In this document: piece after piece, positions 50,400 to 56,814 of the stretch
How the letters are laid out: each line of letters opens with the position of its first letter
Numbering within the stretch: the first letter of the stretch is position 1
The notes under the pieces: generated by a model
What the model was told of the DNA's origin: nothing
What the model saw: the letters and a program-made list of their open reading frames with translations, nothing else
Databases searched by the model: none
Translations under genes and position numbers: made by a program
Origin: Negaprion brevirostris
Taxonomy: Eukaryota
Length of the DNA: 64,000 nucleotides
NCBI GenBank assembly: GCA_030324005.1
Contig: JARDVH010000124.1
Span: 27,011,296-27,075,295, forward strand
Reading direction: 5' to 3'

Positions 50400-52260
50400 T
50401 AGTCACAGGTGTGGGGTGAAATAATATTTATTGTTGTCGATAATGATGCTTTCAAAATAAGTGATAATATAAAAACATGTAAACGTGAGACTTTAAAGTA
50501 CCAACTATACTATCTACCTCGTGTTGGCCTTACCTATGCCATCTTAGTGCCGCTACAACTTCTTAACTTCGCGTGGCCTACCACTACATCTCAGTGTCTC
50601 CCCAGGGTGTATGTTGAGGGGATGGCCAGCTTTCTACCATGCCCCATGGCCTATAATGCCCTTGGTGTGGGTTTCCTGGAGGGTCTGGACTTTGAGGACC
50701 TCAGATCTCAGTGAAGTATCCATGATACCCTCCTCATCCTGTTGTCCCCGAGATGCCCCATTGTCAGGAACATGGGAGTAAGAAAGTGTAGCCACAGCCA
50801 CAGTCTCCTGGGTGGTAGGGCCCGGCGTGGCTCGAGCCTTTTCCCCCTCCCTCAGGATTCCTGTGGGCCAGTGGGCACTCCATGGGGTGGCAGTGCTTTT
50901 GCAGTGAGCGACAGAAGCTCTTGCGTCACCAGACCTGCCAGTCCTAGAGTTCTTGCCATAGTAATGTGATGGCTGTCTGAGTTGGGGGCCACCTGTCAAT
51001 GGCAGCAGCAGGAGCCTCGGAGAAATTGTTTCAGTTTTCTTCCATGTTTACTCTTTAGGCCAGACTCTTCAGTGCTTAAAAAAGGAAGTCTTGTTACAAA
51101 GTCTTGAGGATCCAAAGTTTCAATGGATAGGTCCAAATCGACTAATTATTAAAGTGTATCACAACCCCAAAAAAAGTGTTCAGCTGGAAGCAGATTTCTA
51201 CACAACTAAATGCACCAATAATGAAATAACTAAGTTTAAGAAACAGCTTGAAGATGCTGTTCAGGACTTTCAGTGTGAAGTACAACACTGGAATTCAACC
51301 TGTCACAGTATAAAACCATCAAAGATACCACCAAGTCGTACATTTAATTTCCAATTCATTGTATTGTAACTGGGCCACGTTCTCAAGGACTGAAGCCATA
51401 GCCTGCTGTGTTTTAGCACTGTCCCGCTGGGTTTCCTGCAAGCTCTCGAGCTTTTTAGATAGGGGCCACAGAATCGTGAGAAGCTGGTTGAGGCCCTTAG
51501 CAGGCCTGCTGTGACTCAGCCATTGCTTGGAACCTGCCACTTATGGTGAGGATATTCTGCCCCGGGCTTTCCACCATGGACATCACCCTTGCAGTGTTGG
51601 CCCGAGAACCACACAGGACAGGCAATAGTTGGTCCACCTGAAAGCTTCGGGACTCCTCACAACACCCTTGCAGTCAGTCCAGTGTTGCTGTCAGCCTCTC
51701 CAGCATTCCCTGGCTCTGTTGCTGCATCTCCAGTGGCTGAGCATGTAGCCTGGGGCCAGCTGAGTCCTCGTTTCCAGCAGGCCCCGGCATGCCAGAAGCC
51801 TTGGACTTTCCTTCAACCACTCAGTGTACATCAGCAGATGTGTCGTGTGTACCAGAGTGACCCAGGTGTCTCACTAACTTTACCCACTGATATGAGAGTC
51901 TCTGGGATGGTGTTGTGAGGTGGAAGCTGATGCAAAATTAATGCTGGCTCAGGGGTCCTTTCATCCGTTTCCTCCGAGGAGTTTTCTGAGCTGTCAGGGG
52001 CAGGATGGGCTGGACCATCATGTTGGGGGCCACAATGCCAGATGGTCCAGGCACAAAGGTGTCCCTTCCTGCAACACAGGACACAAGGTTAAGTGCAAAG
52101 GGTGAGAAAGGAATCTGAGCTGCACATAACTTGAGATTTCTCCAACATGTGGAGGATTGGCAGGTACTCACTTCTGTGCTCCAGCCCAACCATGCTGTCG
52201 CTAATGGTCAACATACCCTCCTCCCGCAAGCTCCAGTGCCCACTCCTCAAAGGGGGTGAG
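50400..52260 (-). pseudogene. Harbinger Myb/SANT companion-gene relic, interrupted at 51021-51369
   Basis: Convergent to the transposase; low-complexity LESLQETQRDSAKTQQAMASVLENVAQ segment. The SANT domain itself was not seen (probably cut off by the CR1). Confidence 0.55.
51022..51369 (+). pseudogene. ZPBP/Sp38 (zona pellucida-binding protein)-like coding fragment, apparently spliced
   Basis: EIVSVFFHVYSLGQTLQCLKKEVLLQSLEDPKFQWIGPNRLIIK-VYHNPKKSVQLEADFYTTKC..VQDFQCEVQHWNSTCHSIK..TFNFQFIV. Aligns by eye with ZPBP ..HVLCV..LIDPSFQWYGP.. and AYREP..APC..LLDLSCEISLLKSECHRVK..FFAFSV. Confidence 0.7.
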
Positions 52261-52264
52261 GACT

Positions 52265-53325
52265 GGAACTGATGACAGAAGGTGGTTGTGGAGGGTTGTT
52301 TTCAAACTGGAGGCCTGTGACCAGCTGTGTGCCTGAGGGTCCACTGTTATTTGTCATTTATATTAATGATTTGGATGAGAATATAGGAAGTATAGTTAGT
52401 AAGTTTTCAAGTGACACCAAGATTGGTAGCATAATGGACAGTAAAGAAGATTACCTCAGATTGCAACAGGATCTTGATCAATTGGGCCAATGGGCTGATG
52501 AATGGCAGATGGAGTTTAATTTAGATAAATGCGAGGTGATGCATTATGGTAGATTGAACCAGGACAGGACTTACTCAGTTAATGGTAGGGCATTAGGGAG
52601 AGTTACAGAGCAAAGAGATCTAGGGGTACAGGTCCATAGTTCCTTGAAAGTGGAGTCACAGGTGGACAGAGTGATAAGGCATTCAGCATGCTTGGTTTCA
52701 TTGGTCAGAACATTGAATACAGGAGTTGGGATGTCTTGTTGAACTTGCACAAGACATTGGTAAAGGCCACACTTGGAATACTGTGTACAGTTCTGGTCAT
52801 CCTATTATTAGAAAAGATCTTATTAAACTAGAAAGAGTGCAGAAAAGATTTACTAAGATGCTACTGGGACTTGATGGTTTGAGTTATAAGGAGAAGCTAG
52901 ATCGAGAAGGGCTTTTTTCTCTGGGGCGTAGAAGGCTAAGGGATGATCTCATAGAGGTCTATAAAATAATAAGGGACATAGATCAGCTAAATAGTTAATA
53001 TCTTTTCCCAAAGGTAGAGAAATCTAAAACTAGAGGGCATAGGTTTAAGGTGAGAGGGGAGAGATACAAAAGTGTCCAGAGGGGCAATTTTTTCACACAG
53101 AGGGTGGTGAGTGTCTGGAACAAGCTGCCAGAGGTAGTAGTAGAGGCGGGTACAATTTTGTCTTTTAAAAAGCATTTAGATAGTTACATGGGTATGATGG
53201 GTATAAAAGGATATGGGCCTCATGTGGGCAATTGGGAATAGCTTAGGGGTTTTAAAAAAGAAAGGGTGGCATGGACAAGTTGGGCCAAAGGGCCTGTTTC
53301 CATGCTGTAAACCTCTATGACTTCA
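52265..53325 (+). mobile_element. Comparatively young CR1 LINE 3' portion (RT C-terminus plus tail)
   Basis: GPLLFVIYINDLDENIGSIVSKFSSDTKIG..WQMEFNLDKCEVMH; LERVQKRFTKML; FFTQRVVSVWNKLPE. Confidence 0.95.
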
Positions 53326-54459
53326 TGATTATCCATGTGGCTATATAATCCATGTTGAAATTACAATGCAAATATGTTATGTTCAGGACAGAATACTCTT
53401 TTACTCACTTGGTCAGTGGGAGTATGTATGCAGATAAATCTCTGCAGTTTCCTCTATGCCTGTTTAGCATCACTTCCTGTGAGCTCAACCCACAGTATTG
53501 AAGTTCCCATTGAGTAATAACAGGGAGTTCTACCAAAGCAAAGGTTGTGAGGAACTGTGCTACTGGAGTGGTGGTAGCTTGTATTAATTTACTGATGTGT
53601 GACAGGAGGGAATGTAATTAATATAGACTCCTGCTTTCTGGCAACAATGTAAAATATTGCAGTTGAAAGGGGAGCAGTGGTTTGCAGTAAGGTCTGTAAT
53701 TGTATTGGCTGCTTCTGTAACCCTGAGGCCATTTATCTTTTTGAACTATGGCCTTAACATCTAATCATTATATTCATAAGAACATGTTACCATCACTACC
53801 TGTTGCTCCTCTACTTTAAGTTCCTTTCCCAAAAAAGCTCAATTAATGCTATTGATATCCTGTAACCAACAGTGTTTCTTCTCAACAGTTATTAGTCTGG
53901 CTCTCAAAACATTAAAGATGTTCAGTGGTGCAGAATCAGCTAACTTTGAGGAGTCAACTGCACATGCTCACTATCCCAAGAGAAAAATAAGCTGCCAATC
54001 TTTTTGGTGTTGGTGTTGTTTAGTCCAATGGTTACTAAGTTGCATAATATGCTTATTTCAACCTCCATGTAGCTTCCATTATCCAAAAGATGATCATGTT
54101 TCCCAACAGATTCCCTTCAGGTTTAGACTCCATGATCAAGCAGTGTCCAACATGGCCCAAGTGACACTGGAGAAAAGGCTGTCACTCCAGTGAGTAATTA
54201 TTTCTAATCCTTGAGCTGCAATGTACCAAAAGGGTGAAACCTGAGTTGGCATTTAGGGAGGTTTCAGCTGTTAGAGTTCTCAGCAGATTTACTAGTTATA
54301 AAGACTTGTGCAGTGTGAGTTTGTTGGATGATGTAGCTTGATGTTGACATTTTAAAATAAACAGTTGAAATGAGTGTGGGGAATGATGGAAGGGGCACCA
54401 AAATTGGGAGAAAATTTTAAATGAATCCTTACTTTTTCCCTCTTTATAATGTATAAGGA

Positions 54460-54630
54460 TCTTCCTCCATTTCTGCCAAAAGGTAGATCTGAACCACAGT
54501 GCCACAGTGCCATTTTGAGTAGGGCAAAGGTGCAGGCCCTAAATCCACCCAGCTGGAATGGAGATTCAACCCCATGTTGACGACACCAATCTGATCCACA
54601 CTAGAGTGCAGCCAACTGAGCCAACCACCC
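54460..54630 (-). mobile_element. Third tRNA-derived SINE family
   Basis: Reverse strand gggtggttggctcagttggc (A-box) ... ggggttgaatctcc (B-box-like); no tRNA cloverleaf. Confidence 0.6.
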
Positions 54631-56814
54631 TCAAATCCCGGGATTACTGCTGTTATTTTACATACATGCAAAAATGGATATTGAAGACTAATTTTTACAT
54701 CATTAATAGGGTTTGATCCTTAGCTTTATACCTTTTATTTATTTCTCCAAGTAGTGCTCTCAGCAATTGCTAGAGGTTATTTCATTAGATATCTGTGCTT
54801 GTCAGAGATATCTCAAGCGATGGTTTTGTAATCTAACACAAGAAATATATGTACAAAGTTTAAATCAAAAGCTTTGGTATTTTTAAAAATTATTCTGGAA
54901 ATGGATTGCATTATAACAGATGGCATAAAAATACTATAGAAGCTACAAGGTTGCAATTCAATTGAAAGACTCTGATGCTATTATGAGCACCAGGATTACA
55001 GTTCAAGAGGTTAATGAGTATCAGCAGAACCAGAGATTAAATAATTGCTTTTAGCTCTCTTCACAGTTTTAAATATAAATATATGTTAAGTGAAAAATGA
55101 AATTAGTAACATACAGACTTAAAGAGACCTGGTGATATTAAAAAAAATCAAGGACATTAGATGCCAAAGCTATGGTAACTATTGATTGTGCATAAGGAGA
55201 TGAAGTTAATTTTTGCAAATTCCTACCAATGTCATGTTGATTCAAGTTTAGCAAAGGAATCCAGCGATGTCACAGTTGAAAAGACATAAAATGAGTCCCA
55301 AGCTGCACATACTATGTTGGGCAAAATTTCTCCCACAGCGTGCACTATGCCCATATAAAATAGGCACAGTTATCCATTACTGATTCTTAAAAGAAGGCCA
55401 TTTCAGTCTTACTTCAGATTGGGGAAAGTTAGGTGAATATCTGGGTTAGACAATGTTGAATGACAGGTCCAGATTAATGTCAACAAAAATGAAGTAACAG
55501 AATACTGGAAATCTGAAACAAAACCATTGAAATGCTTTAAATCTAGAATAATTTCATTGCTTCACTGAAATGATCTCCATCAGATTTTCCCTTTATCTAA
55601 TTTTTCAAAAAGTGGTTTGGGCATTCTAGCAATTGTTTGCTAACCTTTTTCTTTTCCACCACTTTATGCCCTATGGAAAGATTTAAATTAAGGTCAGCAA
55701 AGATTGGGTTAGAATATTGTAAATGTTTAAGTGTTTTACTGTGAGGGAAATGTTTTAATTCACCTGAATTTAGGTCAAACTCCCACCAATTAGAGAGAAT
55801 TCTTCATCAGTCCTCCAGGTTACAGTACTCAAAGCACCGTAAGCCATAAAAAAAACATTAATCTCACTGAGCAGGTCGGGGTGGTGAAGATTGCACAAAT
55901 GGATAAGGTGGCAATAGGAGAGATCAAGGTTGGCTGTAGCGTAACAGCAACAGAATGAGCAGAGCTGGCAATTGAGTACAGTGGACACCAAGACAAAAAA
56001 GAGCAGCAAAACAGACTAAAGTGGACAGCAGTGAAGAATGGGAAGCAGACTAACAGAAGACAAGAAACAGTGATGGAGCAGCCTGGAGCTGACCAGGCCA
56101 GGAAAAGAAAGCAGAGTAATTAAGGATCAGAGAGTGGAGATCATCAGAGAGCAGAAAAAGGAACAGGCTGCCAGACAATCTTAGTGAAAGGGATATTGAA
56201 CTTTATAAAATTTGGATGTCCTTTTTTAATGAGAGCTAATGGAAATCAATGCACATGGTATTTTTTGCCACTTATATTACCTGTTTTAGATTGTAACCAT
56301 GATTCTAATTGTCCTAAAAAGTAGCTTAATCCCCATCAGATGGATCACAATGCCTGGCCCAATAGGTTGGGCACTCCAGCTTAGATCACATAAAGCTTAA
56401 CCAAATGCTTTTCAAATAAGCTAATTGCCATCAGATGGCCTTTGAAGATTTTGGCAATGAATGGCATTTCTTGGTAGACATTCAGTGAAAAGATGGAGCA
56501 CGATAACTGGAAATTATCAGTTAACAATGTGCATGATCATAGGCTACCAATAGGTCCTCCTGAAAAGCAAAGAAACTAGCTGTGAGATGTGCACCAAAGT
56601 CATTGTAAAATTAAACATGACCAAATCATCAGTTGCCAGCCCCACTGTTTACTCACATCTAAAACCATTGGAAATTATTGCAGCAGGGTCAATGACACAC
56701 TGTTTGGCTAGGAATGCCAAGTTTGGCACTCCGTTCTTCATTGTAAGATCAGAAAGCCCAAAGTATACTATGAAGCCAGACTAGACTCCAACAATTTTGC
56801 TGTTTTGGCATTAA

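Follow-up and report, generated by a model that had tools for sequence, protein, structure and literature searches.

The window analysed here is a stretch of 64,000 nt of the genome of Negaprion brevirostris, in which a Harbinger-type DNA transposon copy carries an intron-less copy of part of a ZPBP2-like gene located on contig C132. This insert is 347 nt long (51019-51365). The features of the locus are collected in Table 1; the LINE fragment that adjoins the truncated right side of the transposon copy is one that we take to be CR1-like. None of the 17 other frames of the window gave a Pfam match that would indicate a host gene elsewhere in it.

Table 1 Features of the insert and its surroundings (positions in the window)
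Feature	Position	Strand	Basis and remarks
Host: decayed, truncated Harbinger-type DNA transposon copy	48641..52263	.	Part alignable to family copies
Transposase gene fragment (DDE_Tnp_4)	49081..49437	+	Pfam PF13359, E 1.2e-5, 25.4 bits, cut-off 24.8
Decayed companion gene, antisense to insert	50300..52263	-	Boundaries approximate; stop-riddled frames here, longer frames in other copies
Stop-free frame, 134 codons, no Met	50965..51369	+	Both ends are host sequence
Exon X, last 10 nt	51019..51028	+	Alignment to parent
Parent exon A (126 nt; first half of Sp38 Ig domain)	51029..51154	+	C132:46750477-46750602, AG/GT ends, 14 mismatches
Exon A/exon C join, exon B skipped	51154..51155	+	End of A and start of C joined exactly
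Parent exon C	51155..51361	+	C132:46762914-46763132; 219 nt in parent, 207 in insert
Exon D, first 4 nt (TATT)	51362..51365	+	Exon D is C132:46766493-46766572
LINE 3' fragment, right end approximate	52260..53330	+	Pfam RVT_1, E 3.8e-6, 27.2 bits, below cut-off 29.6

Both flanks of the insert align to one transposon family with a DDE_Tnp_4 gene, for which 820 first-look candidates were found, the best other matches being 72-82% identical. A blastn comparison with 12 wider copies covered the host extent given in Table 1 and nothing beyond it within 47000-56000, and parts seen further out in other copies were not found near the window copy on either side. Alignment of the ends of six to seven copies did not define the terminal inverted repeats or target site duplication of the family, and no convincing terminal inverted repeat was present in 46000-56000. 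The companion gene of other copies presumably carries a Myb-like motif; four fragments of this gene gave no Pfam match to Myb/SANT.

An earlier, sequence-only reading of this DNA had noticed an AT-rich block, and the GC content, 0.37-0.40 in 51000-51399, is indeed below the 0.54-0.60 of the bins on either side. That the block is derived from cDNA also held, with its limits moved from 51022-51369 to the actual extent. A DNA search of the same genome gave three candidates, all accounted for by the insert itself and two places 12.3 kb from each other on C132, with 90% and 86% identity to the insert. The end of exon X, exon A, exon C and 4 nt of exon D follow each other in this order and are joined at GT/AG sites of the parent, which does not contain the sequence as one contiguous exon. 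Where a single join on an exon boundary had been placed at 51152/51153, there are three such joins, X/A at 51028/51029, A/C at 51154/51155 and C/D at 51361/51362. The first two are exact, and the third is based on just 4 nt, with another base at 51363 in the related organisms C-F and without a listed difference at this position in organisms A, B and G. Near 51238, exon C has lost 12 nt between direct repeats of 7 nt that lie 12 nt apart.

Exon B (144 nt, 48 codons, C132:46754715-46754858) has phase-1 boundaries on both sides and canonical ends, and holds the second Ig cysteine. Since it is intact in the parent and absent from the insert, the exon skip is genuine, as had been deduced earlier from the lack of some 50 amino acids including this cysteine and from a phase-1 to phase-1 join. 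Besides the exons in the insert, no other parent exon was found within the window. The proposed similarity to Sp38/ZPBP proteins was only weakly reproduced by Pfam, which scored the frame of the insert below the cut-off for Sp38 (PF07354; E 0.011, 16.1 bits, cut-off 23.1); the orthologous protein P0005 clears it with 52.6 bits. The identity of the insert as ZPBP-like is settled by its DNA match to the parent.

ZPBP genes act in sperm. The parent gene occupies C132:46736334-46802606 and shows eight exon-sized matches to P0005 in a protein search that gave 14 matches out of 34 candidates, located on C132, in the insert and, more weakly, on C146, C154 and C73. Because this search yields one close gene, on C132 and with exon B, there is one parent in which exon B is present. 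A paralogue without exon B was considered as the source and rejected, as the search gave one parent carrying exon B and two distant ZPBP genes. Parent orthologues carry Sp38 (PF07354), EGF_Sp38_C (PF20626) and Ephrin_rec_like domains. A homologue search, which covered only longer proteins with exact words in common, found 13 homologues among 112 candidates; 12 of them are named, all as ZPBP-like, uncharacterised or ephrin-receptor-like-domain proteins from cartilaginous fishes. The parent is the third of the ZPBP-like paralogues; it has gained an Ephrin_rec_like domain and also shows a hydrophobic stretch (putative transmembrane helix) and a long C-terminal tail.

Among 45 database proteins of parent orthologues, 39 contain exons A, B and C, five lack exon A and one begins inside exon B. 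Exon A is joined to exon C in none of them, so that the form without exon B is a minor or unrecorded isoform. The proteins without exon A (P0013, P0025, P0028, P0042, P0046) indicate that skipping of an Ig-domain exon is a repeated event in this gene.

Two further observations concern the relatives and the surroundings of the parent gene. On C146 a ZPBP frame of 342 codons is intact and has no introns (L012:1330-2358; G000:C146, about 37788200-37789228, + strand); it encodes complete domains of both kinds, Sp38 (E 5e-24) as well as EGF_Sp38_C (E 1e-16), and is followed by AATAAA, while the paralogues on C154 and C132 have introns; judged by its sequence, this is likely to be an old functional retrogene or a gene that lost its introns. 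An intron of the parent itself contains a piece of the Harbinger family (G000:C132:46790495-46791523) that is 66-70% identical to the window copy. Homology-guided capture by way of this piece was rejected, since its orientation is opposite and only the transposase part is covered; its presence is probably due to chance, the family being abundant.

The insertion site lies in a 42-bp tandem unit of the companion gene, which has the features of a slippage-prone coding repeat. The number of units varies (one, two or more) across copies L022-L050 and L063-L102, several of which have small internal deletions. In a survey of 68 loci, 50 passed both anchors, and the 18 that failed an anchor were judged by eye. 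A foreign insert at the site was present in none of the 50 scored family copies, and the idea that the repeat is a hotspot for capture was dropped for that reason. Of these empty copies, 33 have 68-73 nt across the site and four have 28-29 nt, equal to one unit; the remaining copies have partial or longer element-derived forms (the longer ones 122-217 nt), and L041 is broken by an internal deletion. Since the window copy has 28 nt of host sequence across the site, where 33 of the 50 have 68-73 nt, either one unit was probably replaced or a one-unit copy received a blunt insertion. To judge from these spacings, the insert most likely replaced one 42-bp host unit, with about 37-43 bp being lost.

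Similarity to the host family reaches 51023 and restarts at 51365. At the left junction 4 nt (51020-51023, GAGA) also match the host, and at the right junction 1 nt (51365) is shared. The absence of a polyA tail, noticed in the earlier reading, was borne out, the 3' end lying 4 nt into exon D. The target site duplication that the same reading had found missing is not clearly seen either: there is none of at least 8 nt, and the candidate 5-mers agree at only two of five positions, although a decayed duplication of 3-5 bp may be present.

Eight runs from eight studies, of 24 listed, were compared for the presence of the insert; the list contained no RNA run, which speaks neither for nor against expression. 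Both host junctions are found on single contigs in X2, X9 and X10, which represent three studies and three organism labels and show 14, 21 and 11 differences, respectively. In X1 and X8 each junction is bridged on separate contigs; X1 is identical to the window and possibly its source, and thus not independent. The right junction is bridged in X14 and X16, and the A/C join in X16 and X18. At least one host junction is bridged in seven of the eight runs, at identical positions in every bridging run, and the insertion is common to seven to eight organism labels. The contigs from three other studies that cross both junctions imply that there is no misassembly, which the earlier reading had named as a way in which it could fail, and that the insert is shared among related species.

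With respect to timing, the insert differs from the parent at 10/214 A/T sites (4.7%) and by transversions at 10/347 positions (2.9%), against 30/261 (11.5%) and 40/741 (5.4%) for the host copy versus the family majority. The lower divergence of the insert fits an insertion after the host copy had settled. Other family copies differ from the column majority by about 3.1-3.4% transversions, near the value of the insert, and such soft dating would also be compatible with insertion while the family was active. Change seems to be quicker in the flanks than in the insert, with 5/133 against 6/345 in organism E. Eight of the derived amino-acid changes in the insert took place before the split from organism G and nine after it, so the insertion would be roughly twice as old as that split.

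The removal of introns at splice sites shows that there was an RNA intermediate, and that the transcript was a germline one follows from the heritability of the insert. The insert is a tail-less processed-pseudogene fragment, and the earlier proposal that a spliced and exon-skipped ZPBP-like transcript had been copied into a Harbinger-type element is in agreement with the three joins at parent splice sites. The block comes from the interior of a spliced ZPBP2-like transcript that lacked exon B, and we consider it fairly probable (about 0.6) that it was reverse-transcribed, used as a cDNA patch at a germline break and has been decaying neutrally. On this view the element copy had already settled when a break arose in its 42-bp tandem repeat. 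A reverse transcriptase, probably supplied in trans by a LINE, would have started on the mRNA a few nucleotides into exon D and run back as far as the end of exon X. Then 4-5 nt of microhomology could have guided end joining on the left side, with loss of one host repeat unit (about 37-43 bp), after which the allele would have been fixed before the sampled species split and would have drifted since. The transposon would thus have been the landing site and not the agent.

The exact joining of parent exons, the single parent, the single insert and the lack of polyA speak for a patch at a break, as do the points where the host family match stops and resumes and the likely loss of a unit. Class 2 templated sequence insertions are characterised in the cited part of the work of Onozawa and Aplan (2016; PMC5110952) by microhomology and a microdeletion, with neither target site duplication nor polyA and with spliced cDNAs among the templates, and the insert matches this description, its microdeletion being probable. 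Repair of a break with a cDNA template was one of two routes suggested earlier, and it fits the tail-less end, the microhomology and the probable unit loss. On the other side, the break itself would be deduced from the junctions only, and LINE-primed insertions, according to the passages used from PMC4245944, also yield 5' microhomology and target truncations. With four of the 50 empty copies being one-unit forms, a blunt insertion without deletion is possible as well. Furthermore, the C/D join consists of only 4 nt, and skipping of exon B occurs in none of the 45 database isoforms.

The main rival is target-primed retrotransposition by a LINE in trans, in which a nick, priming inside exon D, 5' truncation and trimming of the target would give the same product from a different lesion. 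Apart from the junction features just mentioned, it is favoured by duplications of only 3-5 bp for L2/CR1 elements, which would fade fast (PMC4245944, as excerpted), by internal priming as a source of 3'-truncated, tail-less retrocopies (PMC5322556, in the part cited) and by retrocopy counts that follow LINE content, with 14,081 retrocopies in cartilaginous fishes (bioRxiv 10.64898/2026.06.26.734816, in the portion drawn on). However, tail-less retropseudogenes are defined in that same part of PMC5322556 with target site duplications of 8-35 nt and an A-rich target, whereas the insert lies in a GC-rich target, shares no more than 1 nt with it at the 3' junction and has a candidate 5-bp duplication of which 2/5 positions agree. 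We regard LINE priming inside the mRNA as a tentative second choice, clearly less probable than a patch at a break.

A longer conventional retrocopy, with a tail and target site duplications, of which both ends were later trimmed by deletions, would suit an old locus in a host with other deletions and truncations. It requires two deletions that jointly took at most about 43 bp of host sequence, the junctions are the same in all bridging runs and the window holds no further parent exon, all of which makes such trimming improbable.

The other route suggested earlier was Pack-type capture, in which the cDNA entered a Harbinger that was still active and was carried along by it; cut-and-paste transposition could leave one copy, the insert does lie inside the element, and the dating allows insertion during family activity. 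The search for other Harbinger copies with the insert gave none, the insert being single-copy and the site free of foreign DNA in all scored copies, and this part of the reading was not supported; the host copy is truncated, and no terminal sequence was matched near it. The Pack-TIR survey of Tan et al. (2021; PMC8277862), in the text cited, sets aside as retroduplicates the intron-less copies of genes that have several exons, and holds most single-copy cases to be independent of transposition. We thus find Pack-type capture very hard to maintain. We judge scarcely better the conjecture of an RNA-route Pack element, in which a vertebrate Harbinger, still able to transpose, would have taken a spliced germline mRNA into its own 42-bp repeat. 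If true, such elements would belong to the class that DNA-based Pack-TIR surveys filter out, and this one would preserve a B-skipped isoform.

The open frame had also been given weight in the sequence-only reading. It is open from 50965 to the TAA at 51369, its first 18 codons and the stop being host transposon sequence. A special status of this frame was not supported: it has no Met, and simulation gives a chance of 0.27-0.43 of acquiring no stop with 20-30 random changes. A retro-fragment that is functional, exonised or translated and held open by selection could be seen in the 115 open codons, in a sole indel that is in frame, and in a pairwise dN of 0.073 against a dS of 0.189 (31/345 nt differ between insert and parent, 19 nonsynonymous and 12 synonymous). 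The insert changes at 51037-51058 lengthen a pyrimidine tract ahead of an AG (51057-51058) in exon A, to 17/20 pyrimidines, and this candidate acceptor-like site would likewise be in line with exonisation.

Nevertheless, the low pairwise ratio is due to constraint on the parent. Comparison with orthologues shows 18 of the 19 amino-acid differences to be derived in the insert. With organism G as a partial outgroup for polarising changes, the window branch has nine nonsynonymous and four synonymous changes among the differences listed, small numbers that are neutral-like (expectation 73-76% nonsynonymous, p 0.37-0.48). The position of the 12-nt deletion between direct repeats also argues against a function, as do the lack of an in-frame ATG, the loss of the first Ig cysteine in organisms B and D, and an in-frame TGA at 51076-51078 in organism G, which is on one contig at depth 3 and may be an error. 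The insert is likely decaying neutrally, without function, and a role maintained by selection is highly implausible. An assembly chimera is practically out of the question, as single contigs of X2, X9 and X10 cross both host junctions.

The insert shows neither new transposon behaviour nor a new gene. It is a clean example, of modest significance, of a tail-less cDNA insertion without target site duplication in a cartilaginous fish; its shared presence can mark out related species as a group, and it is a fossil of a B-skipped transcript that the database isoforms do not show. It would matter more if Harbinger copies held spliced inserts more often than other neutral DNA. Literature searches, in which Harbinger was not combined with cDNA or retrocopy, gave no mention of the locus or of cDNA capture by Harbinger.

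Comparison with known systems places the insert near several of them. Unlike members of the ZPBP/Sp38 family (PF07354, PF20626), it has half an Ig domain plus the next exon and falls below the Pfam cut-off. It resembles single-copy Pack-TIRs, as presented in the parts used of Tan et al. (2021; PMC8277862), in that foreign gene sequence occurs in a terminal inverted repeat element as a single copy, with microhomology and, in the insert probably, a small loss of element sequence, and probably independently of transposition; most such cases were ascribed to gap filling without transposition. However, Pack-TIRs are copies of genomic DNA, often from the same chromosome, from which intron-less ones were excluded, whereas the insert is spliced, and the words "Harbinger" and "PIF" are absent from the main text of that survey. 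With tail-less retropseudogenes (PMC5322556, same part as above) it has the 3' truncation and the missing oligo(A) tail in common, but those are from therian mammals and show 8-35 nt target site duplications and A-rich L1 targets, neither of which is found here. Retrocopies, common in cartilaginous fishes (bioRxiv 10.64898/2026.06.26.734816, portion as above), are similar in being intron-less, with a multi-exon parent, no start codon and neutral decay, and differ in that the insert is truncated at both ends and has no tail or target site duplication. In junctions and template the insert is like class 2 templated sequence insertions, interpreted as cDNA patches at breaks in the cited text (PMC5110952): both are short (73-414 bp in experiments) and come from a distant locus by way of a spliced cDNA, with microhomology, no polyA and no target site duplication (none of 5 bp or more in the insert), and a microdeletion is probable in the insert. 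Those insertions have been described as human polymorphisms, whereas the present one is old, shared among species of cartilaginous fish and derived from an exon-skipped isoform.
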